Source of the DNA: Verrucomicrobiota bacterium
GTDB lineage: Bacteria > Verrucomicrobiota > Verrucomicrobiia > Limisphaerales > J093
Direction of reading: 5' to 3'
DNA length: 64,000 bases
Assembly (NCBI GenBank): GCA_016716505.1
Contig: JADJWF010000011.1
Coordinates: forward strand, 786,123-850,122
Positions 6,110-29,041 of this stretch are shown here, piece after piece. Both the position numbers and the translations under genes were made by a program. The notes beneath the pieces are model-generated. The model saw nothing but the letters and a program-made list of their open reading frames with translations, was not told the origin of the DNA and did not search any database. Within the stretch, counting starts at the first letter, position 1. Every line of letters starts with the position of its first letter.

Positions 6110-6173
6110 GGTTCGCTTCGGTTTGATGGATGCATGGACGCGCTGTTGGCCAACTCCGCCTGACGCCTTGGGA

Positions 6174-13199: not shown

Positions 13200-13212
13200 G
13201 GCAAAGTAACGA

Positions 13213-13444: not shown

Positions 13445-14221
13445 TCAGGAGGTGATCAGCCACTCACCTTCCACGCGTCGGGCCTTGACGGGCAGGTCGT
13501 AGGTGGCGCTGAGTTTTTCCGAGGTCAAAGTGTTTTCGATGGGGCCGGCGGCGACAATTTCGCCCGCGCGCATCAGAATGAGCGCGTCGGCCATATCGGC
13601 GGCGAGCGCGGGATCGTGAGTGGTGCAGACCACGGTGATGCCGTCGGCCACCAGTTGGCGCAGCACATCGCGCACGCGGCGGCGGTTGGCGAGGTCAAGG
13701 TGGGAGGTGGGTTCATCCAGGAGAAGAATGGCGGGCTGCTGCGCCAGGGCGCGGGCGATCATAGCGAGTTGCCGTTCGCCGCCGCTCATGTGCGTGACCG
13801 GGCGTTCGCTCAGGCTGGTCAGACCCACGCGCGCGAGGGCGCGCCGGGCTTCGTCCACATCCCGACCGCCCGGCATCTCCAGCGGGCCAAGATAGGGGGC
13901 ACGCCCGAGGAGGACGTATTCGAGCAGCGTGAACTCGAAGGGGATGAATTCGCTCTGCGGCACGAGGCCGAGCAGGCGACTCCGTTCCCGGTGGCTGAAG
14001 CTGGCGAGCGAGCGGTCGTTGACGAGCAATGCGCCGGAGCGCGGCTTCAACCAACCGAGCAGCACATGCAGCAGGGTGGTCTTGCCGCCGCCGTTCGGAC
14101 CAAGAATCGCCGTGAGCGCGCCCGTCGCAAGCGTGAGCGAGATCTCGCGCAACACCGGCATGTCCTCGAGGTAGCCGAAGGCGATTCGCTCAAGGCGCAG
14201 AATGGGCGGAGTGTTCTTCAT
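13445..14221 (-). CDS. ABC transporter ATP-binding protein (BtuD/FecE/MolC type)
   Basis: 258 aa. Walker A GPNGGGKTT, signature MSGGERQ, Walker B LLLDEPTSHLD. The ATG overlaps the permease stop (ATGA 14218-14221). Confidence 0.9.
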   Translation of the reverse strand: MKNTPPILRLERIAFGYLEDMPVLREISLTLATGALTAILGPNGGGKTTLLHVLLGWLKPRSGALLVNDRSLASFSHRERSRLLGLVPQSEFIPFEFTLLEYVLLGRAPYLGPLEMPGGRDVDEARRALARVGLTSLSERPVTHMSGGERQLAMIARALAQQPAILLLDEPTSHLDLANRRRVRDVLRQLVADGITVVCTTHDPALAADMADALILMRAGEIVAAGPIENTLTSEKLSATYDLPVKARRVEGEWLITS

Positions 14222-15213
14222 TCGCGGGCTACTTTCGTTCCGCGCAGCAGGATGATGGCGAATCCGAGTGCGCCGATCAGCGAGGTGAGGATGCCGAGCG
14301 GAATTTCCCCCGCGGTCAGGGAGCGGGCCACATTATCGCAGCCCAAGGCAAAAATGCCGCCCAGCCATAGGGAGCCGGGCAGCGAACGGCGCGCGTCGGC
14401 CCCCAGCAAACGGCGGGCGATGTGCGGCACCAGCAGACCGATCCACCCCACGAGGCCCGCGACCGCCACGACGGAGGCGGTGGCGGCGACCGCAGCGATC
14501 ACCAGCAGGGCGCGCTCGCGCCCCGCCGCGACGCCCAACGAAAACGCGGTGACTTCTTCCAACGCGAGAATCGAAATGCGCCAACGCATCAGGCCGATGA
14601 TCATGAGGGCCGGAACCACAATCGGCACCATGCGTTGCACATCGGCCCAGGAGACGCCCCACAGCCCGCCCAGCAGCCAGAACGTCAACTCCGGCAGCTC
14701 GCGGCGCGGATCGGCCATGCTTTTCAACAGTCCGAGGCCCGACGAGAACAACGCCGACACCACGATGCCGGCCAGAACCAGGCGCATGACCCACCCGCCG
14801 AATTTCAGGTGGCGGGCGAGGGTGTAGGACAGAGCCAGCCCGCTCAACGCAAAGGTGCCAGCACTCAGGGGCAGCAAGACAACGGAACCCTGGAAAAGGA
14901 GCATGGACAGCGCCGCCCCAAACGCCGCGCCTTGCGACACCCCCAGCAGACCGGGTTCGACCAGCGGGTTGCGAAAGAGCATCTGCAGAACGGCCCCGCC
15001 CGCACCGAGCGTCATGCCCAGCAACACGGCGGTACAGATGCGGGGCAGACGTAGATTCGTCACCAGTTCCCAGGCCATTTCGTCTTCCCAGAGCAGGCGC
15101 ACGGACATGCCCGGCGGCCGGGGATAGCGGCCCAGCAGCAACGAAACGAGCACCAGCAGCAGCAGCAGCGCCGGCAACAGCACGCCCGAAGCCAAAAGCG
15201 TCCGCCGGCTCAT
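14218..15213 (-). CDS. ABC transporter permease, FecCD/BtuC (type II importer) family
   Basis: Polytopic FecCD-type sequence (LLGMTLGAGGAVLQMLFRNPLVEPGLLGVSQGAAFGAA ... GEIPLGILTSLIGALGFAIILL). Start taken at ATG 15213 (MSRRTLL); the track start 15234 is a GTG. Confidence 0.9.
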   Translation of the reverse strand: MSRRTLLASGVLLPALLLLLVLVSLLLGRYPRPPGMSVRLLWEDEMAWELVTNLRLPRICTAVLLGMTLGAGGAVLQMLFRNPLVEPGLLGVSQGAAFGAALSMLLFQGSVVLLPLSAGTFALSGLALSYTLARHLKFGGWVMRLVLAGIVVSALFSSGLGLLKSMADPRRELPELTFWLLGGLWGVSWADVQRMVPIVVPALMIIGLMRWRISILALEEVTAFSLGVAAGRERALLVIAAVAATASVVAVAGLVGWIGLLVPHIARRLLGADARRSLPGSLWLGGIFALGCDNVARSLTAGEIPLGILTSLIGALGFAIILLRGTKVARE

Positions 15214-15217
15214 GCGC

Positions 15218-16312
15218 TCATTGCCAGTCCCCACGCAGACGCGGTTTGATCCGGGCGTCCACGTCGCTTTCGGTCAAGCCATACCACCGGTAGAAGGTCA
15301 CGACTTCAGCCCACAAGTCCAGGTCGGCGAACCGCTCCGGATGCAGCCGCTTGGCAACCCACATCAGTCCCAGCGCCCAGCGGGGGTCCGGCTGGTCCCA
15401 GGTGACCAGGTCGCCGGGAAATGTCCATACCCTGCGGTTCCTCACCGCCTCCAGCTTCTGCCAGGTGCGGTCGGTGCGGATGAGGGACGCCGTCTCGGGG
15501 TCGCCCTCGCCGTAGTCCACGACCAGGAGAATCTCCGGGTTCCACACCGCCGCCTGTTCGAGGCTGATGACCGTCCAACTGCTGCGCTGGGTGGCATCCC
15601 GCCAAACCGGCAGGCCACCGGCCATCTCGACCAGCCGGGTCTGCAGCCATTCCGCCGCCGGCACCCGGAAGGCGCGGGTGCCGGCGCGGGCCGACGTCTG
15701 GACCAACAGAACACGTGGCCGTTGCTCCGACGGCAGATCCGTCAGGCGCGCCGCGATCCGGGTTCGGCGTTCGCGGTAATAGGACCTCAGGTCCGCGGCG
15801 CGCGGCGCGTCGCCCAGGATTTGCCCCAAGGTGAACAGTTCCCGCTCGTAGTGTTCCGGGGTCTCCAGATCGAATTGGAACGCCGGGAGGCCGATCTTCT
15901 CCAGGGCGTCGCCGAGTCGCGCCGAAGTACTCTTGAGCAGGACAAGATCCGGACGCAACGGCGCGAGTTGCTCCGGCCCTACCTCCCCGCCGAACAGCAC
16001 GAGGTCGGGCGCCACACGTCCGGCGCTGACGAGGAACTCGAGGTTCTCCCCCCGCAATTGGCGGGCGTCCACGGCCGCCCGGAGACGCTCCCTCGCCCCC
16101 GGGAACAGTGCGGCTGTACCGACGATCATGAACGAACCGCGCCCGAGCACGGCGATGCGCGCGGGCGGTTCCCGCAACCACAGTTCCCCCCCGTCGGTGT
16201 TGGTCAGCGTCAGACCCGGGGTTTGCGCCAGAACCGTGCCAGCCCCGACCAGCAGCGCCGCCAGCGCGACCCGCAGGGCGTGGTGCCTATCTTCCCGGGT
16301 GATCATTGCCAT
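15218..16312 (-). CDS. Periplasmic substrate-binding protein of type II ABC importers (Peripla_BP_2; BtuF/FhuD/MolA class)
   Basis: Signal-like ALRVALAALLVGAGTVLAQ, then a two-lobe SBP pattern (PDLVLL..., RVLLVQT..., NPEILLVVDYG). Start is ATG 16312 or 16306. Ligand unknown. Confidence 0.8.
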   Translation of the reverse strand: MAMITREDRHHALRVALAALLVGAGTVLAQTPGLTLTNTDGGELWLREPPARIAVLGRGSFMIVGTAALFPGARERLRAAVDARQLRGENLEFLVSAGRVAPDLVLFGGEVGPEQLAPLRPDLVLLKSTSARLGDALEKIGLPAFQFDLETPEHYERELFTLGQILGDAPRAADLRSYYRERRTRIAARLTDLPSEQRPRVLLVQTSARAGTRAFRVPAAEWLQTRLVEMAGGLPVWRDATQRSSWTVISLEQAAVWNPEILLVVDYGEGDPETASLIRTDRTWQKLEAVRNRRVWTFPGDLVTWDQPDPRWALGLMWVAKRLHPERFADLDLWAEVVTFYRWYGLTESDVDARIKPRLRGDWQ

Positions 16313-16829
16313 CCTTTCCTTCGGAAACCCTGACCGTCTCGATCTCGAACCCACCGAGCCGCGCCACTTGATCGCGGAGCACGGCTAGCAGCGCGGGGCG
16401 CACGGCCAGAATCGCCTGCGTGAACGCGCGCTCACGCAACACCGACCACACGGAAGTCCAGCCCCGATTCGCCTGCAACTCCATCGGCCCCAGTTCATCC
16501 ACCACCAGCGTGTGACACCGCCCGGTTTCCTGCAAACGTGCGTCCGCCCAGGTCAGCACGGCTTCATCAAACTCCCATGAACGGCTCGGGCCTGCGCCAG
16601 CCTCTGGGCGGCGGGTGGCTAGCAGACGCTCCTCGCCCGAGCGGAGGTCCCGCACGCGGATGGCAACTTTCCGGCCGGCCTCGAAGACGCCGGGCGAGAG
16701 CAGTCCCCTCACCTCGTGCCCCGCCGCGCGGAGGTCGGCAACCGCGCGCTCGCACCAGCGGGTTTTGCCCGCGTCTCTTGCTCCGGTCACAAGCCGGAGG
16801 CGCGGCCGGGACTGGAGATCGCCCGTCAT
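16287..16829 (-). CDS. Small P-loop NTPase (THEP1/DUF2478-like)
   Basis: 180 aa. Walker A LVTGARDAGKTRW, Walker B-like TLVVDELGPMEL. ATGA overlap with the upstream gene (16826-16829). The rest of track ORF 16287..17873 is an out-of-frame extension over the neighbouring gene. Confidence 0.65.
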   Translation of the reverse strand: MTGDLQSRPRLRLVTGARDAGKTRWCERAVADLRAAGHEVRGLLSPGVFEAGRKVAIRVRDLRSGEERLLATRRPEAGAGPSRSWEFDEAVLTWADARLQETGRCHTLVVDELGPMELQANRGWTSVWSVLRERAFTQAILAVRPALLAVLRDQVARLGGFEIETVRVSEGKDGNDHPGR

Positions 16830-17764
16830 GGCATGACGACCACGCGATAGAAGACATTGGTCCCGGCCCCGAAAACGGCTTCCATCCAGTTGGTTTCCGT
16901 GCCTGTCACCAAAAGCGTGACAACTTCCGCCCAGTTCGTTGGCGAAGCCAGGTCGAAGCTCCGTTCGATCCGGTGGGGCAGGGATGGAGTGGCGTGGATA
17001 ATGTCCAGGCGGAATGCCGTGGGGCTGGATCGGACGAGGTTGAGGACCGGCCCGCGCAGGGTCAGGGAAACTCGCGGCCGGTATTCCGGCGGATTGGACG
17101 CGCTTTCCGAAGACGTGAACGGCGCACGATCCGAGCCGCTTGCCGGAGGACGGTTTTCCCCGTCCATGATCAGAACGGCTCCGTAGTTCAACAGGTTCGA
17201 CCGGGTCAACGCATGGGTGAGCAGGCCGGTAATGTCCCAACTGAAGAACCGGTCGTTCAGGTCCGGGTCCAAAACCGGCTCCTTCACGGCCACCACGTAA
17301 TGGTCCGCGTCGAAATCGCCGCCCGGCGTCGTCCACTGGTTGGTCCCGTCGCGGGTCAGCCACGTCGCGCCCGTGGCCGTGGCTCCGGAACCTCCTGTGC
17401 CCTCGACGAACGAAGTCGTCAACGGATACAGGCGGATGTCGCGGTCCCGGGTGTTGTCTTGGAAGACGTAGAAATAGACCTTGGCCTGCTGGATGGCGGT
17501 GGGTGGATACGCGGCCACAGCAGCCGGGAGGGCAAACAGCCCGCGCGTCACCGAGGTGTCGCTGTTCACCAGCACGCGCACGCTGCCGTTGAGACCGAAG
17601 TTCGATTGCTGAGCCGCCCCCCGGCTGTCCAGGTAGGAGTCCTGCGTAATGGGGAAGCTCACTTCCGTGGCCCGCACCGGCAGGGTGCCAGCCAGGAGAA
17701 CAGCCGCCAGCCACCTCGGCCGGGCGCGTAGGAAGCTGATCACGGGCAGGGATTGGCATTTCAT
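16826..17764 (-). CDS. Secreted protein with a DNRLRE-like domain
   Basis: 312 aa. Signal peptide LAAVLLAGTLPVRA, then ITQDSYLDSRGAAQQSNFGLNGSVRVLVN...RGLFALP...AKVYFYV...IRLYPLTTSFVEGTG...GATWLTRDGTNQWTTPGGDF. Family assignment is from memory of the domain pattern. Confidence 0.6.
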   Translation of the reverse strand: MKCQSLPVISFLRARPRWLAAVLLAGTLPVRATEVSFPITQDSYLDSRGAAQQSNFGLNGSVRVLVNSDTSVTRGLFALPAAVAAYPPTAIQQAKVYFYVFQDNTRDRDIRLYPLTTSFVEGTGGSGATATGATWLTRDGTNQWTTPGGDFDADHYVVAVKEPVLDPDLNDRFFSWDITGLLTHALTRSNLLNYGAVLIMDGENRPPASGSDRAPFTSSESASNPPEYRPRVSLTLRGPVLNLVRSSPTAFRLDIIHATPSLPHRIERSFDLASPTNWAEVVTLLVTGTETNWMEAVFGAGTNVFYRVVVMP

Positions 17765-17800
17765 GTTGGATCGCGAGGGTTCTGTTAGGATGGAGTGTTG

Positions 17801-18679
17801 TTAGTAAGGGTAGGGAAACCAGGTGAAATCGCCCCGCCGGGGGATGCGCGGATTGGGGCGGGACTGGTCCCACAGGTCGTTGCGCCAGCGGACATGGCCG
17901 TCAAGATGCAGCACGTTGCCGCCCAGCCCGTCCCGCCGCCGGGCATGACGCTCGGCAGCCGCCCGCGCATCCTCGGCGGATTGATAACCAGCCAGGCGAA
18001 ACGAGCCTGCCTGTCCGTAGCCCTGACGGGGATCGAGCGTCTGCTCGAAGAGCAAGATGGTCTGTGACGGGGCGGCGGCCCGCGTGAGCTTCAGGAAACT
18101 CGGCTGTAATTCCGCCCCCCAAGGCAGGCCGTAGAGAAAATCGTGGGCGAGGAACGAATTCATCGCATAGCTGTGATAGCCCTCCACGGACGGACGATAA
18201 TCATATTCGGGGTCGGCCAGCGGGCGGGCCGTGGGACAATGCCAGATGCCACTCGCCGGCTTTTGTCCTTCCGGAAAATCGCGCCAGGCCCGCCCTCCCA
18301 AGTAAGGCGGCAACACGTCCACCCAGCCGTGGTCATGCTCGGGAAAGGTGGGCGAACCAAATGCGCCCCGGTCGCGCCGCCGATCATCCGGGTGCGGCAG
18401 AAAGTCGTCGTTGTCGCTCGCATACAACAGTGCCGCCAGCCCCCACTGGCGCAGATGGCCGAGGCACTGCGTCGCCCGGGCCTGGTCCTTCGCCCTGCTC
18501 AACGTCGGCAGCAGCACCCCGGCCAGCACGGCGAGAATGACGATCACCACCAGCAGTTCAATCAGCGTGAAGCCGTCGCACGCGCCTCCTCCCGGGTCGG
18601 GAAATCTGCCCCGTCCGTTATCCTCGCCGGAGGATAACGCCCCGCCAGCACCATCCCTTCCTGTCCGGTTGCGCCTCAT
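17801..18679 (-). CDS. Prepilin-type N-terminal cleavage/methylation domain protein (pseudopilin-like, DUF1559/H-X9-DG-like)
   Basis: Start at MRRNRTG (ATG 18679, ATGA overlap with the ModE-like stop). GFTLIELLVVIVILAVLAGVLLPTLSRAKDQA, and a C-terminal GGNVLHLDGHVRW motif. Confidence 0.8.
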   Translation of the reverse strand: MRRNRTGRDGAGGALSSGEDNGRGRFPDPGGGACDGFTLIELLVVIVILAVLAGVLLPTLSRAKDQARATQCLGHLRQWGLAALLYASDNDDFLPHPDDRRRDRGAFGSPTFPEHDHGWVDVLPPYLGGRAWRDFPEGQKPASGIWHCPTARPLADPEYDYRPSVEGYHSYAMNSFLAHDFLYGLPWGAELQPSFLKLTRAAAPSQTILLFEQTLDPRQGYGQAGSFRLAGYQSAEDARAAAERHARRRDGLGGNVLHLDGHVRWRNDLWDQSRPNPRIPRRGDFTWFPYPY

Positions 18680-19065
18680 GGATTTTCCCTTGATCCGAGT
18701 GTCGGCCGAAGCAGTCGCAGCACCTGCTGTCGAGTGCGCTCGGTGCTGGCTTGCGCCTCTGCCTCCAGTTGCCGATAAAGCGCCAGCACCCGGCGCCCGG
18801 TCTCCGTCAACCCGGTACCGCCGCCAACCGCCCCGCCACGCTTCGAAGCGACCAACGGTGATGCGAAGCGGTGATTCAGGGCTTGGACGTGCAGCCAGGC
18901 CCGGTTGTAGGACATGCTCATCTGACGTGCCGCGCCGGCGATGGAGCCGGTGGCGCCGATGCGGGCGAGTAATTCCACCTTGCCCGGTCCCAGTTCGAAT
19001 GGCTCGCCGAGATGCAGGCGCAACCCGGAGCGGGCTTTCGGTAACGATTCTCGTCGAGCCTTCAT
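18676..19065 (-). CDS. ModE N-terminal-domain-type transcriptional regulator (wHTH only, no Mop/molbindin domains)
   Basis: 129 aa. LLARIGATGSIAGAARQMSMSYNRAWLHVQALN...KRGGAVGGGTGLTETGRRVLALYRQLE parallels the E. coli ModE N-domain (GSISQGAK..GISYKSAW...GGKGGGGA.LT..G..L..LY). Confidence 0.75.
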   Translation of the reverse strand: MKARRESLPKARSGLRLHLGEPFELGPGKVELLARIGATGSIAGAARQMSMSYNRAWLHVQALNHRFASPLVASKRGGAVGGGTGLTETGRRVLALYRQLEAEAQASTERTRQQVLRLLRPTLGSRENP

Positions 19066-19721
19066 GGTTGCAACCGGGACACAATCGTTCGGGCCATTAT
19101 GCGGGACACAGGCGCTTTGGTGTTCCGTCTCGGGGTATGCGGGGGAAGCGTCGTCGGCGCCGCCAAATCATCAGGCGAGTTCCAGTTGGCGAAGGACGCC
19201 CATTCTACCTCCGGAACGTCTCGCACAATGAGCAAACCAGCCTGCTGGCAGAGCTCGGCGAAGCCAGACGCGGCGCGCAACTGCCTCCGGAGCAGATCGA
19301 GTGCGAGGGGCGTGGCCGCTTTGGGATAAATGGCCGCCAACGGCTCGAGCCGTCGGCCGATCCGGGGCACAACGCCCCTGGCTTCTCGACAGTGCCCCGC
19401 CAAATCGCGCAGCGTTGCGCTCGTCATCGCTGGCATGTCCACCGCCAGCACCAAGACCAGCGGAGCCGTGGCCGCCTCCAATCCGGCGGCGATGCCCGCC
19501 AGCGGACCGGCGTCAGGAAACGCATCGCGTAGCACCGGACAAGCCAGCGCACTGTAATCCGTGTCACCCCGACCTGAGATGAAAAGCTCGACCGGGCCAA
19601 GTTCATTCACCACCGCAATCTGCCTTGCCAGCAGCGGCTGGCCGTCGAGCGGCAGCCAGGCTTTGTCGCGCCCCATGCGGCTGGATTTGCCTCCGGCCAG
19701 GATGACGGCACTGAACTTCAT
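19062..19721 (-). CDS. mobA: Molybdenum cofactor guanylyltransferase
   Basis: MKFSAVILAGGKSSRMGRDKAWLPLDGQPLL...GPLAGIAAGL...VLAVDMP. ATGA overlaps at both ends (19062-19065, 19718-19721). Confidence 0.85.
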   Translation of the reverse strand: MKFSAVILAGGKSSRMGRDKAWLPLDGQPLLARQIAVVNELGPVELFISGRGDTDYSALACPVLRDAFPDAGPLAGIAAGLEAATAPLVLVLAVDMPAMTSATLRDLAGHCREARGVVPRIGRRLEPLAAIYPKAATPLALDLLRRQLRAASGFAELCQQAGLLIVRDVPEVEWASFANWNSPDDLAAPTTLPPHTPRRNTKAPVSRIMARTIVSRLQP

Positions 19722-20191
19722 ACGCCCTCGGTGGCATCGCGGCGCAGCACGCCGCTCGTGAGGATGCGGCAGCGCAGGCCGCCGCGGCCCTGCAACCAGG
19801 CCCGCGCGCCCGGTCCCAGCGCCTGATCCATCCAGTCACACGGGCGGCACTCCTCCACGCCGGCGAAGCGAACGCCCTGGATCTTGAATTCCCGGCCGAT
19901 CAGCCGATTGAGGTCCGCGCCCCGCACGAACACGTTGCGCCGCGTCGCCTGTGGTTGCGCGTTCGGCAGATTCAGTTCCCGACGCAACGCCTCCAGCGCT
20001 TCCATCGCGAAAAAGGTGATCTGACCCTTGTAGTCTTCCTTGTGGTCGAAAAAACGGTCGCCCCGGATGCCCCGGCCCGCCACACATTCGATCTGTTCCA
20101 CAGCGGCGATGGGGTGCTCGCCCGCCGGCTGACCATGATGGCCAAAGAAGTTGTGTCCGGGCGAAATGAACAGGTGTTCGATGCGAAACAT
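19718..20191 (-). CDS. MOSC-domain protein
   Basis: Start at MFRIEHLFISPGHNFFGHHG (ATG 20191), 157 aa, with VEECRPCDWMD (the conserved MOSC Cys). Confidence 0.8.
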   Translation of the reverse strand: MFRIEHLFISPGHNFFGHHGQPAGEHPIAAVEQIECVAGRGIRGDRFFDHKEDYKGQITFFAMEALEALRRELNLPNAQPQATRRNVFVRGADLNRLIGREFKIQGVRFAGVEECRPCDWMDQALGPGARAWLQGRGGLRCRILTSGVLRRDATEGV

Positions 20192-20199
20192 GACGAAGA

Positions 20200-21135
20200 T
20201 CAACCACCAGCAACAGCCGGGGCTGGTTCGGACGGAGACGCGGCTTGATACGTCTCCAGACAGCGATTGCAGAGGCCCTGGTCCGGAAGCCACGCGGGAA
20301 ACTCAGCGGCGATGCGTTGGCGGATTTCCAACGCCAGCGTGCGGGTGTCCGCCCAGTGGAACGTTGGAAAGTCACACAGTGGACACGGCGCGCCCGGCGC
20401 GGGCCGATGGGCGTCGCGCAACCCGCGAGGGTCGGCGATCAGCGCGAGGATGTCGGTCTGGCGCGGGGTTGGGTTTTGCCACAAGGAGGCGAAGGTTGCC
20501 GCCTGTCGTGCCTCCGGCCAGAAGGAATAGCCGCGCGCGAACGCGGCAGCGTGCTGCTCGCGCGGTTGGAGCGGCACGTGGCCGGCGGCGGCGAGGCGGC
20601 CGTCAATCGTGATGTCCCAAAGCAGGCGGTAACGCTCGCGCGCCAGCCGGATTTGAGCGGCGTTCAAGCCGGGCAGATCGAGCGCGGGCGAGTAGCCGAA
20701 AACCGGATCGAGCATGTCGTGTAGATGCATGAACTCGTGGCGAAGGAAGTCCCGCAGTGTGGCGTGATTCGTCAGGCGCTCGGTCTTCAGCGCCAGCAGG
20801 CCGGTGCGCTGGCCGGCCTCGTTGACGTAGAGTTCCGCGCCCTCATCGTTCTTGCCCGTGCTTTTGCGCACGGCCAGGACGGCAAGCCGTTCGCGCACGA
20901 GCGGAAACTCATTGAGCACGTCCGTCAATGGCTGCTCCAGTCCCCATTCGCGAAACCAGTCGAGGTGCAGCTTGAAGAACGCAGCATTGCGCTCGTCGGG
21001 ATCAAGGATGCTGTAGAGCTGCTCACGTTTGCGGTGGAAGCGGGTGATTTGCAGCGGTGGCACGCCGCTGCGCCGGCCGCTGGCGCAGAGAAACACGGCC
21101 GCTTCAAGAAAATCGTCGTCGTAGCGCAGTTGCAT
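20200..21135 (-). CDS. Hypothetical protein with an HExxH motif and a C-terminal double-CxxC (zinc-ribbon-like)
   Basis: 311 aa. LRDFLRHEFMHLHDMLDP, and C-terminal CPLCDF...CNRCLETY. It starts 3 nt after the TorD-like stop and ends 8 nt before the MOSC start. I recognise no family. Confidence 0.6.
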   Translation of the reverse strand: MQLRYDDDFLEAAVFLCASGRRSGVPPLQITRFHRKREQLYSILDPDERNAAFFKLHLDWFREWGLEQPLTDVLNEFPLVRERLAVLAVRKSTGKNDEGAELYVNEAGQRTGLLALKTERLTNHATLRDFLRHEFMHLHDMLDPVFGYSPALDLPGLNAAQIRLARERYRLLWDITIDGRLAAAGHVPLQPREQHAAAFARGYSFWPEARQAATFASLWQNPTPRQTDILALIADPRGLRDAHRPAPGAPCPLCDFPTFHWADTRTLALEIRQRIAAEFPAWLPDQGLCNRCLETYQAASPSEPAPAVAGG

Positions 21136-21138
21136 GGA

Positions 21139-22000: not shown

Positions 22001-22096
22001 TCGGCACGGTAGTTCCCAAACACCGAACGCCTCGGCGTGTCGGTGCGGGCGGCCCACTCGCCGCTCCTCACTCCGCGCTCCGCATTCCGCACTTGT

Positions 22097-23368
22097 TCAG
22101 ATGGAGTTGGCATGTTTGGCGTCCCGCACGTGCAACGGTTCTTCCACGGTGGTTTCGATGATCTTCGTGCCGTCCTTCGCGTAGCCGATGATGGTGTCGT
22201 TGTAGAGGGCGAACTTTTTGCCGCGCACCTCGGTCTCGAACACCTTCGGGCCTTCCTTGATTTCGTAGCGGTGGCAGATGCGCTGGTCCTTGCCGAAGAG
22301 TTGCAGCACGGCGAGAAGTTCGCGGTCAGGCGCGGAGTATTTCTCGATGGCGTCGTCCACGCCCGGGCCGAACATCTGGCGCAGATACGGACGCGACACC
22401 CAGCGCGGCGGGATGTAATAGCCGTTGGGCTCAGTGCCGAATTGCGGGTAGAGCGGCAGCGCGACTTTGGCGACGTGGATGAGGTAATAGAGCGGATTGT
22501 TCCGCGCTTCCTTCCATGTGCCGTCCTTGTTGAGTTCGATAAGACCTTGAAGACGAATATGGCCAATACATGCAGCCATGCAGCGGGTCTGCATCGGGAG
22601 ACTGCCGCCAGCCTGGTCGCGGCCTTCGACACGCGGGTAACAGGCGATGCACTTTTCGCTGGTGCGCGTCGTCCCGCGATACAGGGTCTTCTTGTAGGGG
22701 CAGGCTTCCATGCACTTGCGGTAGCCGCGGCAGCGTTCCTGGTCAATCAACACGATGCCGTCCTCGGGCCGCTTGTAGATGGCGTTGCGCGGACAGGCGG
22801 CCAGGCAGGCAGGATAGCTGCAATGATTGCAGATGCGGGCGAGGTAGAAGAACCACGTCTTGTGCTCGGGCAACAGTTCGCCACCCTTGAAGTATTGGCC
22901 TTTCACGCCCTTCTCGTTGCCGACCGGATGATCCTCGTAGCGGTTGGGCGCGGACCATTCTTCGTCGGTGGGCAGATAGCCAAGCGCGCGATTCGCGCCT
23001 TCCGGACCGAGGAAGGTTTTCGCCGCTTCGAAAATCGTTTTGCCGTTGAACTTGCCGTAGGGGGCTTTGACGTCCTCGGGCTTGCCGCCCCAGTTTTGGC
23101 CGCCGGGATTGGCCTGCTCGAGCAGGTCGAGCGTCTTCACGTCCCAATGGTGCGGGTAGCCGCCGTAGGGTTTGGTTTCGACGTTGTTCCACCACATGTA
23201 TTCCTGGCCCTTGGCGAAAGTCCAGGTGGACTTGCAGGCCATGGTGCAGGTCTGGCAACCGATGCAGCGGTTGATGTTGAAGATGAAGGCGAACTGCTGG
23301 TCGGGAAACGCCGCCTCGTAGGGGTAATCCATCTCGCGCCCCAGTTGCCAGTTGAAGACGTTGCTCAT
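22097..23368 (-). CDS. Type II DMSO-reductase-family beta subunit (4 Fe-S clusters), NxrB/NarH-like
   Basis: 423 aa. MSNVFNWQLGREMDYPY...FIFNINRCIGCQTCTMACKSTWTF...MWWNNVETKPYGGYP. Further Cys groups CNHCSYPACLAACP, CRGYRKCMEACP and CIACYPR. No signal peptide, so it would hitch-hike on the alpha subunit. Confidence 0.9.
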   Translation of the reverse strand: MSNVFNWQLGREMDYPYEAAFPDQQFAFIFNINRCIGCQTCTMACKSTWTFAKGQEYMWWNNVETKPYGGYPHHWDVKTLDLLEQANPGGQNWGGKPEDVKAPYGKFNGKTIFEAAKTFLGPEGANRALGYLPTDEEWSAPNRYEDHPVGNEKGVKGQYFKGGELLPEHKTWFFYLARICNHCSYPACLAACPRNAIYKRPEDGIVLIDQERCRGYRKCMEACPYKKTLYRGTTRTSEKCIACYPRVEGRDQAGGSLPMQTRCMAACIGHIRLQGLIELNKDGTWKEARNNPLYYLIHVAKVALPLYPQFGTEPNGYYIPPRWVSRPYLRQMFGPGVDDAIEKYSAPDRELLAVLQLFGKDQRICHRYEIKEGPKVFETEVRGKKFALYNDTIIGYAKDGTKIIETTVEEPLHVRDAKHANSI

Positions 23369-23410
23369 GTTCGTGAAGGGTTGAGTCGTTGAAGAATTTC
23401 AGGGTCGCGG

Positions 23411-23863
23411 TCAGACGGTGAATTTGGGAGCGGGCGCGCCGGTGGGGTCGGTGGGTTGTGTAGCGCAGGCTTCCGAGCCTGCTGTGTCGCGGGTTGCCAA
23501 ACCCGCCTGCGCCCCGGCGTTGTCACGCTCTGCCGATTTGGAAATCGGCGATACAGCAGACTTGGAAGTCTGCGCTACCTCGCTTCCGCCGGCCACAGGC
23601 CATTCTATTTTCCTGCCCGAGCGCGCAAACACCTCGGCGATCAGGTCGCGGATGAATGGCTCGCCGCGTTTTTCGAGCGCCATGTGCGGGCCGAGGTAAT
23701 GCGGGTTGCGGAACAACGCAAGCACCTGCTTGTGGCCGTAGCCCATCCGCATGAACTCCTCGATGAACGTCTCGGCCATGTCGTTGGTCGTGTCTTCATG
23801 CGTCATGAACGCCATGCCGTTCAGTTCAAACGGGTCTTCAAAATCGAATTCGTCTTTGGGCAT
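23411..23863 (-). CDS. Small hypothetical protein between the alpha and beta subunits; the 3' third of the ORF is REP-derived
   Basis: MPKDEFDFEDPFELNGMAFMTHEDTTNDMAETFIEEFMRMGYGHKQVLALFRNPHYLGPHMALEKRGEPFIRDLIAEVFARSGRK looks protein-like. From about aa 96 the frame runs through REP 23460-23578 (VAQTSKSAVSPISKSAE...). Confidence 0.5.
   Translation of the reverse strand: MPKDEFDFEDPFELNGMAFMTHEDTTNDMAETFIEEFMRMGYGHKQVLALFRNPHYLGPHMALEKRGEPFIRDLIAEVFARSGRKIEWPVAGGSEVAQTSKSAVSPISKSAERDNAGAQAGLATRDTAGSEACATQPTDPTGAPAPKFTV
23460..23578. repeat. REP-A cluster 4 (about 119 bp)
   Basis: GTAGCGCAGGCTTCCGAGCCTGCTGT, GCGGGTTGCCAAACCCGC, GCCGATTTGGAAATCGGC, ACAGCAGACTTGGAAGTCTGCGCTAC. Confidence 0.85.
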
Positions 23864-23957
23864 ACGTGATTTCCCGATGGCAGCCGACCTGAGGAGGCTC
23901 GAACTTTTGCCACGAAGGAGAAGTGAGCCTCCCTGCGCCGGCGGCTACGAAATATTC

Positions 23958-26900
23958 TCACTCAAACGTTTCTCCGCCGCCGCCTTCGCCTTTGCCCACG
24001 AAGTTGCCGGCGAGGTATTTCTTCATCTTGTCGTTCTCGGCGTCGGGGGACATGCCGTTGAGGCCGGGCTTCCACGGGCCTTTGCCGCCCAGACCGCCGT
24101 CCTCGGCCTTGGTCACACGGACCAGACATTCCTTCGGCACGGTGTTGACGGCGTGGTTGTCGGCCTCGCCGCCGAAGATGAACGCCATCGCCACCTTGGC
24201 CTTGTGAAACAGCGTATCGGTCTGGTGCATCGGCATGTGCCAGTTGCGCGTGACGGATTGCTGCGAGCCGAAGCGGAAGTTCGAGATGTAACCTTCCTCG
24301 GTGAGCGACAGGCCGTCGGGCCGCGTCTGCTGGGCCTTCACGGTCTTCTCCGTCGCGATGAACGAGCCGTGTTTCATCATCACGACGTTGTAGGGATAGG
24401 CGGCGTTGTAAGTCAGCCGCAGCATGAGGCGGCTGACCTTGTAGAACGGATCGCTCGGCGTCGCGCCGAGATACGGGCGGTCGGCGGGATTGGCGTCCAC
24501 ATAGACGTAATCGCCATCGGCGAGGCCGAGGTCGCGCGCGGCCTGCGGGTTCATGTGGAGCTGATGCTCGCCCACGTTGGGCAGGCGTTTGTCCACGCGA
24601 TACGGATCGCCGAAGTTTGAGTTCCAGATGAGGTGCCAGTCCACGTTGGCCCACGACGAATGGACGCTGTGGCGCGACTTGGGCGTGAGGCAGTAGAACT
24701 GGAATCCCTTTTCCCAGAGGAAATTCTTCGTCTTCTTCACCTCGGGCCACGGTAGCTTCACGTTGCGCACGGTGCGTTCGTCCCAATGCTCGGCGTCGAG
24801 CGGGATGCCGTAATCGTTCGGGCGCACGAGCGGATTCGAACTGACGATCACGTTCGGCAGATACGGCGTCGCCTCCGGGCCTTCGCGGTGGACGATGAAG
24901 TTCTCGCCGCACGCGAGCGCGGTGGGGTCGTCGGTGTAACTGTGCAGGCGGCCCGTGTCGGTGTAGAACGGGTAGTTGTCGTGGACCTGTTCGTAGAACG
25001 GGATGCGCGGGTAGCTGCGGAAGAGCATGAGCGCACCGCCGGGCGGGCCGTATTTGCCAGCCATGATGTCTTCCACTTTGTAGCCAGCGGTGGTGGTCGA
25101 GGTGTCGAGCAGGCGCTGGAGATAGACCTTGCGCTGGCCGGTCAGCTCGAAGTGGAAGTAGTCGCGGAAGCGTTGGTCGCCGGTGACCTTGCCGAGCGCG
25201 GCGGCGATGCCGGCCAGGATGGACAGGTCATCCTTCGAGTCGTAGAGCGGTTTGATGCCGCCCTTCCAGATTTGCAGGAAGGGGTTGGAACAACTGGCGG
25301 TGACTTCGAGGTCCTGGAACTCGACCCACGAATTGGCCGGCAGGCCGAAGTCGGAATACTCGACGCTGGCGGTCATCTGGGTTTCGAGCGTGACGATGAG
25401 TTCGACGTTGGGGTTGACGTTCTTGATGACGCCGTAAGCCCATTTGGCGTTGTTGATCAGGTTCACGTTGGTCGTGAAGATCGCCTTGGTGGGCGTGGGC
25501 ATGTGGGTCTTGCCGGTGAAGTTCTTCCGTCCCTCTTTCGGCGTGTTGACGATGAGCGGGCGGTCGCCATGATTCCAATAGGCCGGCTCTTCGTCCTTGG
25601 TGTAACCGTGGGCGTGAACGTCGCGGCCGTGGGCCTTGGGATCGAGGTTCGGCGCAAAGGGGTCTTCCGCCACCCAGCCCTTGAAGCCCGGGCCGGTGAG
25701 TTTGCTGCCCTGGAAGAGCGCGGCCTTGTAGTTGCCGGCCCAGTGGTAGCAACCCGCGCCCGGCTTGCCGATGTTGCCGGTGAGCAGCAGCGGCAGGTGG
25801 GCCGCGCGGTTGGCCTCGGTGGCGTGAAACCAGTGCGCGATGCCCTCGCCCTGGTGGATCGCCGCGGGCTGGATGGTGGCGAGGTCTTTGGCGAGCCGCT
25901 CGATCAAGTCCTTGGGCGCGCTGGTGATTTCCGAGACGGTGTCGAGGTCGTAGTCCTTGAGGTGGACCTGGTAGAGATTCCACGAGGTGGCGACTTCCAC
26001 TTCCGAGCCGTCGGCCAGTTTCACGCGGCCACGGAAATCGAGCTGCGGATCAATGCTGGCCCGGGCCATCGTCGCGCCGACCATGTCGCGGGTGAGGGCC
26101 TTCGGTGAATTCGTCATGGCGTCCCAAACGACGAAGTCGCCGAGTTTCTGGTGCTGCTCGTCGGTGAGGCCCTGCACTTTCTTGCTCGGGCCGTCGTCGG
26201 CGAGGCGGCTGGTGTAGTTGGGGAACACCTCCGCCGCGCGCAGGCGCTTGAGGTTGTCGGTGCGGATGAGCAGCGGGAAATCGGTGAACTGCTTCACGAA
26301 CGCCTCGTCATACCACTTGTTCTCGATCATCACGCGGGTGACGCCGAGCCAGAGGGCGGCGTCGGTGGCGGGGCGGACGGGGATCCAGTAATCGGCCTTG
26401 GTCGAGGGCGCGCCGTATTCGGGGGCGATGACGACGATCTTGCAGCCGCGTTCCATGGCTTCGACGAACCAGTGCGCGTCGGTGAGCTTGTTCTCGACCA
26501 GGTTCTTGCCGTTCATGACGAGCAGCTTGGAGGTGCGCAGGTCGTTGAAGTCGCAATCGGCGTTTTGCAGGCCATGCACCCACGGCTGGCCGGGGGCTTG
26601 ATCGCCGTGCCAGGTGTAATTGGACCAGTTGCGGCCGGCTTTGGCTTCCTCGGGCTTGACGCCGCGCACGTGAACGTCGAGCAGGGCGAGGGAATTGCAC
26701 AGACGATACATGCCGTATTTGCCGAGCACGCCGAGCAGGCCCATGCCGCCGCGCATCTTGATGGTGCGCGTGCCCGCGCCGCCCATTTCCTGAATCATCT
26801 CCGGCTCGTAGCCCTGTTCGGCCAGCAGCTTCGCGCCGGCCTCGCCGGAGTAACGCTTGGCGATGGCCATGGTGGCGCGGGCGATGTAATCGAAGGCTTG

Positions 26901-27440
26901 ATCCCACGAGAGGCGCTCGAACTTGTCCGTGCCGCGCGAGTCGAACTTGTATTTGGCCTTGAGTTCCTTGGTGAGCAGCGGGAAGCCGTCATCGGCCCAG
27001 CGTTTCCAGCCGCGGCGGACGATGGGGTGCTTGAGGCGATACGGCCCGTAAAGGATGCGGTGAAAGGTGTAGCCCTTGGCGCAATGGCGGTTGCCCCAGT
27101 TGGGCGAGGCGTGGTTGCCGTAGAGGTCCTGGTAGGTGTGGATGTCGAACTCTTCGCCGAGGCGAACGATGACGCCGTTGCGCACGTGGGCCGTGATGCG
27201 GCAGTTGTGCGTGTCGTTCGGCGCGCACACCCACGAGAACTGACGATCGTAGGCGTATTGATTGCGGTAGAGCTTCTCCCAGTCGCGGTTCGGGTAATGC
27301 GCGAGGGGGTTGGCGACGTCCTCGGCGGGCTGGGCCTGGAGGAAGCGCAGCGGGAGGAACTGGGCGGCGGTAATGCCCGCGCCGACAAGGCCGCTGCGCT
27401 GGAGAAACGCGCGGCGGGAGAGGGAAGAGTCGTTGCTCAT
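23958..27440 (-). CDS. Type II DMSO-reductase-family molybdopterin alpha subunit, Tat-exported, NxrA-like (periplasmic nitrite oxidoreductase/nitrate reductase type)
   Basis: Start at ATG 27440: MSNDSSLSRRAFLQRSGLVGAGITAAQFLPLRFLQA (twin-arginine signal). 1160 aa. N-terminal Fe-S motif WVCAPNDTHNCRI...NRHCAKGYTF. Large molybdopterin oxidoreductase body. Substrate not determinable by eye. Confidence 0.9.
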   Translation of the reverse strand: MSNDSSLSRRAFLQRSGLVGAGITAAQFLPLRFLQAQPAEDVANPLAHYPNRDWEKLYRNQYAYDRQFSWVCAPNDTHNCRITAHVRNGVIVRLGEEFDIHTYQDLYGNHASPNWGNRHCAKGYTFHRILYGPYRLKHPIVRRGWKRWADDGFPLLTKELKAKYKFDSRGTDKFERLSWDQAFDYIARATMAIAKRYSGEAGAKLLAEQGYEPEMIQEMGGAGTRTIKMRGGMGLLGVLGKYGMYRLCNSLALLDVHVRGVKPEEAKAGRNWSNYTWHGDQAPGQPWVHGLQNADCDFNDLRTSKLLVMNGKNLVENKLTDAHWFVEAMERGCKIVVIAPEYGAPSTKADYWIPVRPATDAALWLGVTRVMIENKWYDEAFVKQFTDFPLLIRTDNLKRLRAAEVFPNYTSRLADDGPSKKVQGLTDEQHQKLGDFVVWDAMTNSPKALTRDMVGATMARASIDPQLDFRGRVKLADGSEVEVATSWNLYQVHLKDYDLDTVSEITSAPKDLIERLAKDLATIQPAAIHQGEGIAHWFHATEANRAAHLPLLLTGNIGKPGAGCYHWAGNYKAALFQGSKLTGPGFKGWVAEDPFAPNLDPKAHGRDVHAHGYTKDEEPAYWNHGDRPLIVNTPKEGRKNFTGKTHMPTPTKAIFTTNVNLINNAKWAYGVIKNVNPNVELIVTLETQMTASVEYSDFGLPANSWVEFQDLEVTASCSNPFLQIWKGGIKPLYDSKDDLSILAGIAAALGKVTGDQRFRDYFHFELTGQRKVYLQRLLDTSTTTAGYKVEDIMAGKYGPPGGALMLFRSYPRIPFYEQVHDNYPFYTDTGRLHSYTDDPTALACGENFIVHREGPEATPYLPNVIVSSNPLVRPNDYGIPLDAEHWDERTVRNVKLPWPEVKKTKNFLWEKGFQFYCLTPKSRHSVHSSWANVDWHLIWNSNFGDPYRVDKRLPNVGEHQLHMNPQAARDLGLADGDYVYVDANPADRPYLGATPSDPFYKVSRLMLRLTYNAAYPYNVVMMKHGSFIATEKTVKAQQTRPDGLSLTEEGYISNFRFGSQQSVTRNWHMPMHQTDTLFHKAKVAMAFIFGGEADNHAVNTVPKECLVRVTKAEDGGLGGKGPWKPGLNGMSPDAENDKMKKYLAGNFVGKGEGGGGETFE

Positions 27441-27478
27441 AGATTGGTCGGGTTGGTGGGATCGCTCGCCGTGCAAAT

Positions 27479-29041
27479 TCAGTCGAGCACGAGCTGATAC
27501 CAGTTGCTCACCATCTTGCGGCCGTTGCGGTCGCCCTGCTCGCCGTTCCAGACGGCGAAGGCGACGGGCACGGATTTGCCGGCGGCGAATTGCACGTCGT
27601 CCTGGTCGTTTGACTTGAGGTCGCGGATGAAGACGACGTTCCAGAAGCCGGCGTGCCAGAGGCCCTTGCCGGCGACGTTTTGCTGGGCCAGCGGCTGCGA
27701 GGTGAACGAGCCGAAGCCGCGCGCGTTGGCGTCCTCGATGGGCGACTTGTGCGGCTGGGCGAGGATGTTTCCGGCACTGGTGGCGGTGGCGAACTGGCGT
27801 TCGGGTTGGAAATAAGTGTCCACGTGCATGGCCTGGTAGGCGTCGCGCATTTCGGGGAGGTCACCGCCGGCTTCCATCTGCCAGCCGGCTTTCCATTGCC
27901 AGAGGTTGACGGGGTTTTGGGCGTCGCCCATGCCGAGGAAGCCGTAGCGACCGGACAGCGAGAACTGCAGCGCGGCGGCGTCCTGGAAATCCTGCACGCG
28001 GATGGTGGTGTTGTGCGGGAGTTCATCGCGCCATTGAAGCAGGACGGCGAGTTTGTTGCCGTCGGTGACCGCGGAAACGGCCACGGCATAAACCTGATTC
28101 GGCTCGGGCCAGAGCGGATTCAGCGGCACGCGCACCGGGTCGAGCGATTCCCAAGCAGCGTCCATCGGCTCGGAGGGCAGGCTCGCGACATGCCGGACGT
28201 GGATGGCATTGTCCTCGGGCGCGAGCAGGTCGTTGACGGCAACATCGGTGCGGCGGAGGGACTGGACGTAGTGAACAAGCGCCCAGCGTTCGGCGGGTTT
28301 GAGCACGTCATCGCCGTAGGGAACCATGGGCGTGCCGGGCAGGCCGTTGTGGATGCGGAGGTAGAGGTCTCGCCCGGTGTGGCCGCCGCGGAAAAGGCCG
28401 GTGTTGAAATCACGCGGGCGGACGGGCAGGCCAGCAGCGTCCTTGAGCGTGGGGACTTGGGGCCCGTCGCCCGCGCCGGTTTCGCCGTGGCAAAGGTTGC
28501 ACTGCATTTTCTGGTAGATTTGGCGACCGAGGGCGAGTTCCTCGACGCCGGCCGCGGGTTCGGGCGGGACAATGACGGGCTGGGCGAGCTGGCCGCTGGC
28601 GGCGGCTTCGTCGAAGAGGTTCACCCGCCTGCCCGAGGCATCGGTGCGCGCGGTGAGGAACTTGACGTACTGCACGACGTCGCTTCGCTCCTTCTCGGAA
28701 AGGTGGGAAAAGCTCGGCATGGAACTTCCCGGGAGGCCGCGAATGATGGATTGATGCAAGTCGTCATCGGAGGGCAGGTCCACGCCCGGGGTGGACTTGA
28801 TTTTGAACTGTCCGGCGCTGAAGTTCCGCGGTCGCGGGTAGAGCCAGACCGAGGCCGGTCCATTGCCGTCGCCCGTGAGCCCGTGGCAGGCGGCACAATG
28901 CTGTTCATAGACGACGCGTCCACCAGCCAGAGACTCCGCCGGAGCCGCGAGGGGAGACGACGCGTGGGCAGCACCCGGTTCGAATGCTGCGACCGATACG
29001 AAGGCCAAACCGGACAGGCACGGCAGCGCTCTCTTCATCAT
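27479..29041 (-). CDS. Gamma-type subunit: dihaem cytochrome c fused to an EB_dh (ethylbenzene-dehydrogenase gamma / haem-b, DOMON-like) domain
   Basis: Start at MMKRALPCLSGLAFVSVAAFEPGAAHA (ATG 29041, Sec signal). CAACHGLTGDG and CNLCHGETGAGDG (two class-I-like cytochrome c modules). The C-terminal 230 aa or so, ...AVLLQWRDE...AALQFSL...NLWQWKAGW...VAFAVWNGEQGDRNGRKMVSNWYQLVL, are typical of the EB_dh family. Confidence 0.85.
   Translation of the reverse strand: MMKRALPCLSGLAFVSVAAFEPGAAHASSPLAAPAESLAGGRVVYEQHCAACHGLTGDGNGPASVWLYPRPRNFSAGQFKIKSTPGVDLPSDDDLHQSIIRGLPGSSMPSFSHLSEKERSDVVQYVKFLTARTDASGRRVNLFDEAAASGQLAQPVIVPPEPAAGVEELALGRQIYQKMQCNLCHGETGAGDGPQVPTLKDAAGLPVRPRDFNTGLFRGGHTGRDLYLRIHNGLPGTPMVPYGDDVLKPAERWALVHYVQSLRRTDVAVNDLLAPEDNAIHVRHVASLPSEPMDAAWESLDPVRVPLNPLWPEPNQVYAVAVSAVTDGNKLAVLLQWRDELPHNTTIRVQDFQDAAALQFSLSGRYGFLGMGDAQNPVNLWQWKAGWQMEAGGDLPEMRDAYQAMHVDTYFQPERQFATATSAGNILAQPHKSPIEDANARGFGSFTSQPLAQQNVAGKGLWHAGFWNVVFIRDLKSNDQDDVQFAAGKSVPVAFAVWNGEQGDRNGRKMVSNWYQLVLD

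Follow-up and report, generated by a model that had tools for sequence, protein, structure and literature searches.

A string of 15 minus-strand genes in a Verrucomicrobiota metagenome-assembled genome (MAG; GenBank assembly GCA_016716505.1, contig JADJWF010000011.1) encodes an enzyme of the nitrite oxidoreductase (NXR) type and proteins for its maturation, followed by a regulator, two envelope proteins, a nucleoside triphosphatase (NTPase) and an ATP-binding cassette (ABC) importer. The string occupies positions 13445-29041 of the 64,000-nucleotide stretch that was analysed, referred to as the window (contig positions 786,123 to 850,122). An earlier reading made without database searches (the sequence-only reading) took the string for one portable cassette carrying everything needed to make a periplasmic bis-molybdopterin guanine dinucleotide (bis-MGD) enzyme. 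The analysis presented here suggests instead that it consists of two separately conserved modules, an NXR with its maturation genes (module 1, 19062-29041) and a probable molybdenum (Mo) or tungsten (W) importer (module 2, 13445-19065).

All 15 open reading frames (ORFs) were recovered from the ORF listing and a start-codon scan (Table 1), and together with the translations these reproduced every overlap and gap that had been claimed. Five junctions are 4-nt ATGA overlaps (19718-21, 19062-65, 18676-79, 16826-29 and 14218-21). Short gaps separate the TorD-like and HExxH genes (3 nt, 21136-38), the HExxH and MOSC genes (8 nt, 20192-99) and the binding-protein and permease genes (4 nt, 15214-17). 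The spacing is 36 nt between the pseudopilin and secreted-protein genes, 38 nt between gamma and alpha, and 94 nt between alpha and the small ORF; the longest gap within the string is about 170 nt, and 245 nt separate the ATPase stop (13445) from the arsR start (ATG at about 13199). The overlap of about 26 nt reported between the NTPase and binding-protein genes holds with a start at ATG 16312 and shrinks to 20 nt with ATG 16306, which is favoured by better Shine-Dalgarno spacing and agrees with a 362-aa database protein. The start of the TorD-like gene is uncertain (TTG 21927 or 21945), and a longer form from ATG 22113 would cross a repetitive extragenic palindromic (REP) element. The minus-strand run exceeds the string, extending from about 3593 to 40553, and 4-nt overlaps also occur outside it between unrelated neighbours (e.g. 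32621-32624), so co-orientation and overlap are normal for the host genome and not specific to the string. Family searches (Pfam, NCBIfam) backed the earlier gene labels except "DNRLRE-like", for which the protein itself has no family match.

Table 1. Genes and repeat elements of the 15-gene string in the window
Feature	Position	Strand	Identifying evidence
nxrC-type gamma subunit	27479..29041	-	Pfam Cytochrom_C x2 + EB_dh
nxrA-type catalytic bis-MGD subunit	23958..27440	-	full-length match to Kuenenia NxrA 7b04_B
Small cytoplasmic protein	23411..23863	-	between alpha and beta
REP pair type B, two inverted copies	23460-23578		47-nt arms, 81% complementary
nxrB-type iron-sulfur subunit	22097..23368	-	match to Kuenenia NxrB 7b04_A; Fer4_11 + related Fe-S domains
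REP pair type A, beta/TorD-like gap	21927-22001		29-nt arms, 90% complementary
NarJ/TorD chaperone (type II DMSO-reductase chaperone)	21139..21927	-	Pfam Nitrate_red_del, 77 bits
HExxH/4-Cys cytoplasmic protein	20200..21135	-	invariant RHEFxHLxDM + C-terminal CPLC...CxRC
Small MOSC-domain protein	19718..20191	-	Pfam MOSC, 36 bits
MobA, molybdenum cofactor guanylyltransferase	19062..19721	-	NTP_transf_3, 125 bits
ModE N-terminal-type winged-helix regulator (ModE-N), first gene of module 2	18676..19065	-	TIGR00637, HTH_1
Pseudopilin-like protein	17801..18679	-	GFTLIELLVV N-methylation motif; N_methyl, 30 bits; TIGR02532
Secreted two-beta-sandwich-domain protein	16826..17764	-	CBM96/DNRLRE-like via homologues only
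THEP1-like P-loop NTPase	16287..16829	-	Pfam NTPase_1, 54 bits; weak DUF2478
Cluster-A periplasmic binding protein (Peripla_BP_2)	15218..16312	-	Pfam, 61 bits; signal peptide
FecCD-family type II ABC permease	14218..15213	-	FecCD, 251 bits
ABC ATPase, type II importer	13445..14221	-	ABC_tran, 107 bits

The NXR module and its conservation

Module 1 is predicted to encode a periplasmic NXR of the Nitrospira/anammox lineage exported by twin-arginine translocation (Tat), which upholds the earlier proposal of a periplasmic bis-MGD enzyme and gives it a specific type. In a sequence search against solved structures, alpha matches Kuenenia stuttgartiensis NxrA (7b04_B) with 1737 bits over residues 7-1148 and beta matches NxrB (7b04_A) with 597 bits over residues 2-423. 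For gamma, the match is to NxrC (7b04_C), with 111 bits, and lies in the C-terminal half. The N-terminal half of gamma matches the dihaem cytochrome 6h5l_B (157 bits) and carries two c-type haem motifs (CAACH, CNLCH) joined to the EB_dh/NxrC haem-b domain; gamma is thus a three-haem fusion, and the fusion is kept in relatives at 91-100% coverage. Read directly off the translations, the N-terminus of alpha bears the twin-arginine signal SRRAFLQRSG and that of gamma a hydrophobic Sec-type signal ending in AHASS. In the Kuenenia enzyme the key residues are the Mo ligand Asp275, the substrate residue Asn70, the ligands of the iron-sulfur (Fe-S) cluster FS0 (Cys67, Asp71, Cys75 and one more Cys) and, in NxrC, the haem-b ligands Met155 and Lys305 (Chicano et al., PMC8387239). 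Alignment locates equivalents of Cys67, Asn70, Asp71, Cys75 and Asp275 in alpha (of the FS0 cysteines, Cys67 and Cys75 were located), where CAPNDTHNC stands against CSPNDTHAC in Kuenenia and WHGDQAPG is identical in both, and alignment to 7b04_C places Met155 and Lys305 equivalents in gamma. The enzyme subunits and the chaperone also match the type II dimethyl sulfoxide (DMSO) reductase subfamily models TIGR03477-03482, all four below cutoff. The reaction may run towards nitrite oxidation or nitrate reduction; the Kuenenia NXR is bidirectional in vitro.

The conservation of this block was assessed in species-representative genomes. The alignment of HExxH-protein homologues yielded 37 loci, of which 36 are Verrucomicrobiota-like and one is from Planctomycetota, and all window proteins were mapped onto them with tblastn. 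Of the 23 loci with at least 8.5 kb upstream, 22 contain the complete set of gamma, alpha, small-protein, beta, TorD-like and HExxH genes. Among 23 full-length Verrucomicrobiota loci, the identity of alpha is 84-97% in all but one (L034, 75%), and the median identity of beta among relatives is 92%. Downstream sequence of at least 2 kb is available in 33 loci; 27 of these have MOSC after HExxH and 21 have MobA, after which the genes vary between relatives. The ModE-N, pseudopilin, secreted-protein, NTPase, binding-protein and permease genes occur in none of these 33, and the ATPase query matched only generic ABC proteins at 28-32% identity in three loci (L006, L026, L030). The dedicated chaperone and MGD synthesis of the sequence-only reading are supported, NarJ/TorD and MobA being syntenic with the enzyme in many relatives.

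The TorD-like protein, whose gene is syntenic in 33 loci, scores 87 bits against TIGR03482, below the cutoff of 152. MobA scores 97.5 bits against TIGR02665 (cutoff 151.85) in a match that stops at residue 187 of 219; the remaining ~30 aa are an unconserved extension reaching into the ModE-N start codon. The small protein belongs to no Pfam or NCBIfam family; in 24 related loci its gene separates those of alpha and beta. In its alignment, an N-terminal domain (about 85 aa) and the C-terminal motif TDPTGAPxP are conserved, and the linker that joins them is hypervariable. The HExxH protein likewise has no Pfam or NCBIfam family. It has 755 homologues at E <= 0.001, of which the top 120 are 65-86% identical and verrucomicrobial wherever named, and its all-alpha model (pLDDT 69) gave no match to a fold in the PDB at E <= 0.001 in a fold search. 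Five of its homologues (P0004, P0034, P0058, P0061, P0099) contain repeat-like insertions of 35-50 aa (e.g. SADFSPLQ...LKRAEARAP), which fall in a low-confidence loop of the model (residues 85-119) and resemble in-frame insertions of repeat elements.

REP copies were located by blastn-short. The sequence-only reading had placed REPs in both the small ORF/beta and beta/TorD-like gaps; the second placement stands, and the other pair (type B) lies in frame within the linker-encoding 3' half of the small ORF. The small ORF stays open across this REP-derived linker in the window and in L001-L039 and retains the conserved TDPTGAPxP end. The type A pair (two inverted copies, where chance would give 0.03) abuts the likely TTG start of the chaperone gene; no conserved hairpin was detected in the beta/TorD-like gap across 27 relatives (Z-scores -7.8 to +1.5). 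Elsewhere in the window, type B copies at 2410-2449 and 3425-3464 flank a gene for an IS200/Y1-type transposase (2682-3428; a modest Y1_Tnp match, 31 bits), and another lies at 6888-6927. The REPs are genuine, and their layout is that expected for a REP-associated tyrosine transposase (RAYT). Type B copies were also found in L010, L020, L022 and L048, and type A-like copies in L011 and L018.

Several irregularities were observed among the related loci. L039 (5105-9975) has insertions between its TorD and HExxH genes that encode a 733-aa multihaem-like protein and an FG-GAP/ASPIC/TPR protein. In the window, large FG-GAP/ASPIC genes (29172-36658) immediately precede gamma on its own strand at a distance of 130 nt, and such genes also precede it in L001. 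L010 has a TorD-HExxH pair (73% and 71% identical) with no close NxrAB upstream (best alpha 23%, best beta 39%), and its five type B REP copies suggest rearrangement. The MAG records of L003, L005, L006, L009, L011, L013 and L035 are titled "uncultured Bifidobacterium", "Bifidobacteriaceae" or "Hyphomicrobiales" and are apparently mislabelled.

The regulator, envelope proteins and importer

Module 2 begins with a 129-aa protein that scores 81 bits against TIGR00637 (cutoff 98.5). It gave no Mop or TOBE match in Pfam or NCBIfam and so falls short of a two-domain ModE; of the Mo-responsive regulator proposed earlier, the ModE DNA-binding domain stands and the molybdate-binding Mop domain is missing. 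No ModE-like operator was found in the window. The pseudopilin shows weak DUF1559 and HX9DG signatures (TIGR04294, 17 bits). The secreted protein has no Pfam match at E <= 1 and no NCBIfam match at E <= 0.01; its homologue P0155 matches CBM96 (PF24517) with 31.8 bits against a cutoff of 26, and P0181 with 20.4. Its model shows two beta-sandwich domains (pLDDT 79), and the fold matches are to generic beta-sandwiches with template modelling (TM) scores below 0.3. The NTPase gave no sequence match in the PDB.

These genes form a cassette of their own in other genomes. A search with the substrate-binding protein (SBP) found 25 homologues, 11 of them at 66-74% identity, and on their contigs the order pseudopilin, protein of about 315 aa, NTPase_1, SBP, FecCD and ABC is kept, and most of the tight junctions are retained. 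Copies in L042-L044, L047-L049 and L051 are 54-89% identical and have unrelated neighbour genes. The pseudopilin is 72-86% identical and in the same position in L042-L044 and L047-L049, the secreted CBM96-like protein is 69-78% identical in six cassette loci, and the NTPase is present in every copy, including the distant L045 and L052. One copy (L042) and an nxr locus (L007) lie on separate contigs of a single MAG. As the cassette is conserved away from nxr, the pseudopilin and the secreted protein belong to the importer and not to the enzyme; both envelope proteins are present as first described, with their assignment to the enzyme unit corrected.

The neighbours of these copies bear on the function of the cassette. 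In L042-L044, it is preceded by an HTH_3 + PBP_like regulator whose C-terminal domain matches the C-terminal part of PRK14498 (a MoeA fusion). An S-adenosylmethionine (SAM) methyltransferase with a weak corrinoid-protein-methyltransferase match is encoded next downstream in most copies; the window's methyltransferase (11523-12386) was ruled out as its counterpart, being a true ArsM. In two distant copies, L045 and L052, XdhC is encoded beside the genes for the importer, NTPase and methyltransferase, and L052 also has an HTH_1 gene resembling ModE-N that is transcribed divergently from the cassette. The importer set of L045 is also near radical-SAM, AMP-binding, C_GCAxxG_C_C and DUF364 genes. 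The L045/L052 arrangement presumably resembles a named Desulfovibrio cluster.

The substrate of the importer is most likely molybdate or tungstate. The best solved relative of the permease is MolB/HI1471 (174 bits), ahead of HmuU (148), BtuC (114), BhuU and FhuB. The SBP matches 4ovk, 4hn9 and then MolA/HI_1472 (6e-15, 58 bits), and MolA is the only ligand-characterised protein among these top three. MolBC-A is an established low-affinity type II importer of molybdate and tungstate (PMC4031551). With these matches, the ModE-N and PBP_like regulators and the XdhC and MobA neighbours make Mo/W the best-supported substrate. An importer of the ModABC kind was ruled out, because the SBP is of the Peripla_BP_2 family, the permease is of the FecCD family, and neither ModA nor ModB was matched; the uptake of Mo that had been proposed is therefore plausible, through a system other than ModABC.

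The alternative is that the importer carries an iron chelate, haem or corrinoid, and that its adjacency to nxr is incidental or serves the demand for haem and Fe-S clusters. Peripla_BP_2/FecCD systems typically move siderophores, haem or B12, and the best NCBIfam matches fit such cargo (IsdE for the SBP, BtuC for the permease and F420-0, corrinoid or haem systems for the ATPase, all below cutoff), as does the weak corrinoid match of the downstream methyltransferase in relatives. The ATPase is non-discriminating, with FhuC, HI1470 and HmuV scoring about equally among its PDB matches. Against this, the permease is nearer MolB than HmuU, BhuU, FhuB or BtuC, and MolA stands out among the SBP matches as described above. 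Furthermore, the associated regulators are of the ModE-N or PBP_like type and none is Fur-type or another recognised iron-responsive kind (no cobalamin riboswitch search was made), and XdhC and MobA adjoin the cassette. An iron, haem or corrinoid cargo is accordingly considered unlikely, although it is the strongest of the competing explanations.

Joining of the two modules

A single relative, the 9.6-kb locus L048, repeats the window order from MobA onward. Protein identities are 61% for the C-terminal half of MobA, 73% for ModE-N, 86% for the pseudopilin, 78% for the CBM96-like protein, 74% for the NTPase, 70% for the SBP, 89% for the permease, 88% for the ATPase, 68% for ArsR and 78% for ArsM. 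In L048, MobA and ModE-N are separated by an AT-richer spacer of about 360 nt that carries, immediately before ModE-N, an 18-nt inverted-repeat pair. The window has no such spacer, the MobA extension overlapping the ModE-N ATG instead, and a search of the window for the spacer palindrome found none. A scan of metagenomes with ModE-N gave one homologue, in an unrelated context. The order in L048 together with the loss of the spacer in the window indicates that the fused arrangement is real in a small sub-lineage and is derived. A further difference was observed at L048 3457-3675, a 217-nt NTPase/SBP gap with a REP copy (3513-3542) where the window has an overlap.

The string is therefore probably composed of two separately conserved modules, the NXR with its maturation genes and the Mo/W importer, which became contiguous in one Verrucomicrobia sub-lineage. 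As the spacer between them is gone, transcripts from nxr would likely read through into the importer; the tight packing of the genes and the lack of terminator-like sites in the gaps agree with this. In the proposed mechanism, MGD would be made by MobA, and NxrA would take up Mo-bisMGD in the cytoplasm, its apo-form being held by the NarJ/TorD chaperone, as the protein families suggest. NxrA would leave via Tat together with NxrB and then meet the Sec-exported gamma, whose dihaem cytochrome c may provide a built-in path for electrons between the Fe-S chain and soluble carriers in the periplasm. The small protein, the HExxH/4-Cys protein and the MOSC protein would be conserved accessories of the NXR module. 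Module 2 would act as a ModE-N-regulated importer of the MolBC-A kind bringing in molybdate or tungstate, and read-through from nxr would couple this metal supply to the expression of the Mo-dependent enzyme.

Several points weigh against this interpretation. Sites resembling promoters and terminators are at or below chance: two sigma-70 promoter-like sites were found against 2.0 in shuffles and nine terminator-like sites against 14.4, with a consensus that is uncalibrated for Verrucomicrobia. Since this consensus scan placed no promoter-like or terminator-like site in an intergenic gap on the coding strand, it is uninformative, and co-transcription is inferred solely from the packing of the genes. 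The REP hairpins after nxrB could also split expression, as could a promoter that may lie within the 3' end of mobA, which is unconserved. Two uncharacterised SBPs outscore MolA as matches to the window SBP, and the best family-level NCBIfam matches of the importer are to haem, corrinoid and siderophore systems, all below cutoff. Finally, L048 ends inside mobA, hence the presence of nxr upstream is assumed there.

The adjacency of the 15 genes might instead be a chance rearrangement in a region rich in REPs and insertion sequences (IS), without functional meaning, the overlaps reflecting genome compaction. The minus-strand run (~3.6-40.5 kb) indeed takes in unrelated ars, FG-GAP and oxidoreductase genes, unrelated neighbours overlap by 4 nt (32621-24), REPs and a Y1 transposase gene lie in the region, and the genes after MobA differ among relatives. 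However, L048 keeps the order of the junction at 61-89% protein identity, and the functions brought together are related, with MobA and a Mo enzyme on one side and a ModE-type regulator with a MolBC-like importer on the other. The loss of the spacer to give two ATGA overlaps suggests selection for, or tolerance of, coupling. Chance adjacency is thus judged improbable.

Least credible of all, and very improbable, is the original proposal that all 15 genes form one portable cassette, inherited and transcribed as a unit and self-sufficient for a bis-MGD enzyme: it could draw on the five ATGA overlaps (which include both ModE-N junctions), the absence of any gap above about 170 nt and of terminator-like sites from the gaps, the MobA, ModE-N, importer, ars order repeated in L048, and codon-usage distances at or above the random maximum, but the second half is present in 0/33 related nxr loci and its seven genes stand alone elsewhere, even on a separate contig of an nxr-bearing MAG, L048 has its 360-nt spacer with an inverted-repeat pair ahead of ModE-N, no mobility genes flank the string, and it contains no cofactor biosynthesis genes besides mobA (no MoaA-E, MoeA or MogA), so that "everything needed" does not apply. 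The synteny comparison proposed for the single cassette thus went against it, with the modules separate in relatives and the MobA/ModE-N junction shared by L048 only. The composition comparison proposed for horizontal acquisition gave a similar outcome. The GC content at third codon positions (GC3) is 0.82 in module 1, 0.80 in module 2 and 0.82 in the other window genes, and the tetranucleotide correlations of modules 1 and 2 with the background (0.973 and 0.975) lie within the range for background segments (0.934-0.986). Recent horizontal transfer was rejected on these matches to the background, which leave no clear transfer signal. The codon-usage distances are 0.54 and 0.50 for modules 1 and 2 (random groups 0.33 +/- 0.06, maximum 0.51), values compatible with expression level or amino-acid bias. 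The string is neither self-sufficient nor demonstrably mobile, and its arrangement is an ordinary operon-level juxtaposition.

The two joined modules are flanked by genes of other functions. Downstream, the ars genes encode ArsR, ArsM (306 bits, cutoff 263), Acr3, a second ArsR and ArsP. Just ahead of the arsR start, at 13199-13260, is the inverted repeat ATTTCG-N8-CGAAAT, which fits a separate ArsR-controlled promoter. Beyond ars, an 870-aa multihaem cytochrome c is encoded at 3593-6205 (minus strand), with seven CxxCH motifs, one CxxxxCH and a hydrophobic C-terminal region; none of the related nxr loci has a counterpart of it. On the plus strand at 45923-50842 there is an assimilatory sulfur cluster with a NIR_SIR sulfite/nitrite reductase, two genes of the 3'-phosphoadenosine-5'-phosphosulfate (PAPS) reductase family and a CysN-like GTPase.

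NXR makes nearly all nitrate in nature, and the nxr block sits in the genomes of dozens of Verrucomicrobiota species. Should these be active nitrite oxidisers or periplasmic nitrate reducers, more organisms would have to be considered when modelling the nitrogen cycle and in wastewater and drinking-water systems. Of most remaining interest in the locus are the conserved accessory genes of the verrucomicrobial NXR and the MolBC-A-like cassette with its pseudopilin. The small, HExxH/4-Cys and MOSC proteins are candidates for the missing maturation steps of Tat-exported NarG-type enzymes, and the fused dihaem gamma suggests how electrons may exit from haem b, a point left open for the Kuenenia enzyme. 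The cassette would take the MolBC-A type beyond Haemophilus and offers a first functional context for one pseudopilin-like gene among the very many that these phyla carry. A more speculative and rather unlikely extension is that module 2 is an undescribed Mo/W acquisition system peculiar to Verrucomicrobia and their relatives, in which the pseudopilin and the CBM96-like protein capture Mo or W or convey it through the envelope to the MolBC-A-type importer and the NTPase handles the metal in the cytoplasm. The welding of this system to an NXR with its own dihaem exit would then mark these widespread Verrucomicrobiota as unrecognised nitrite oxidisers or periplasmic nitrate reducers with growth limited by Mo supply.

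Comparison with known systems

The closest characterised enzymes are NXR-ABC of Kuenenia stuttgartiensis (7B04) and the NXRs of Nitrospira and Nitrospina, with which the window shares full-length homology of A, B and C. The Tat signal on A, the FS0 Cys3/Asp motif, the Mo-ligand Asp, the substrate Asn, the Met/Lys haem b and a soluble gamma without a membrane anchor are shared with the Kuenenia type. In Kuenenia, as in the window, nxrA and nxrB are separated by one or more genes (kustd1700 and kustd1703 are not adjacent). The window differs in the N-terminal dihaem cytochrome c domain of gamma, in that NXR-T was not detected in it, and in its accessories (small protein, TorD, HExxH, MOSC and MobA); its host is a Verrucomicrobia MAG, and it carries no anammox genes. 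The ebdABCD, serABDC, pcrABCD and ddhABDC operons of type II DMSO reductases share alpha, beta and gamma with a dedicated NarJ/TorD-type delta chaperone, whereas the window has gamma first, an extra gene between alpha and beta and three maturation-type genes after the chaperone.

NXR-like genes were already known in Verrucomicrobia, though uncharacterised, from the nxrABC of Pedosphaeraceae MAG WB-IL-17 (Poghosyan et al. 2020, bioRxiv 10.1101/2020.05.19.103440). The contig of that MAG is among the loci compared here (L018), with alpha 88% and beta 93% identical to the window. In that report, nxrABC alone was described and the Fe-S motif was judged absent, whereas the window has the Cys3/Asp FS0 motif; the downstream accessory genes and the link to an importer are not described there.

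Module 2 can be compared with two metal-uptake systems. With the ModE/ModABC regulon it shares a ModE-type DNA-binding domain beside a metal importer and mobA, and it differs in having no Mop/TOBE sensing domains and an importer that is not ModABC. With MolBC-A of Haemophilus influenzae (HI1470/71/72) it shares a FecCD permease nearest MolB, a Peripla_BP_2 SBP matching MolA and a Mo-related genomic context. In contrast to MolBC-A, the window-type importer is accompanied by a pseudopilin, a CBM96-like protein and a THEP1-like NTPase, and mostly by a SAM methyltransferase in relatives, an accessory-rich cassette that appears to be undescribed.

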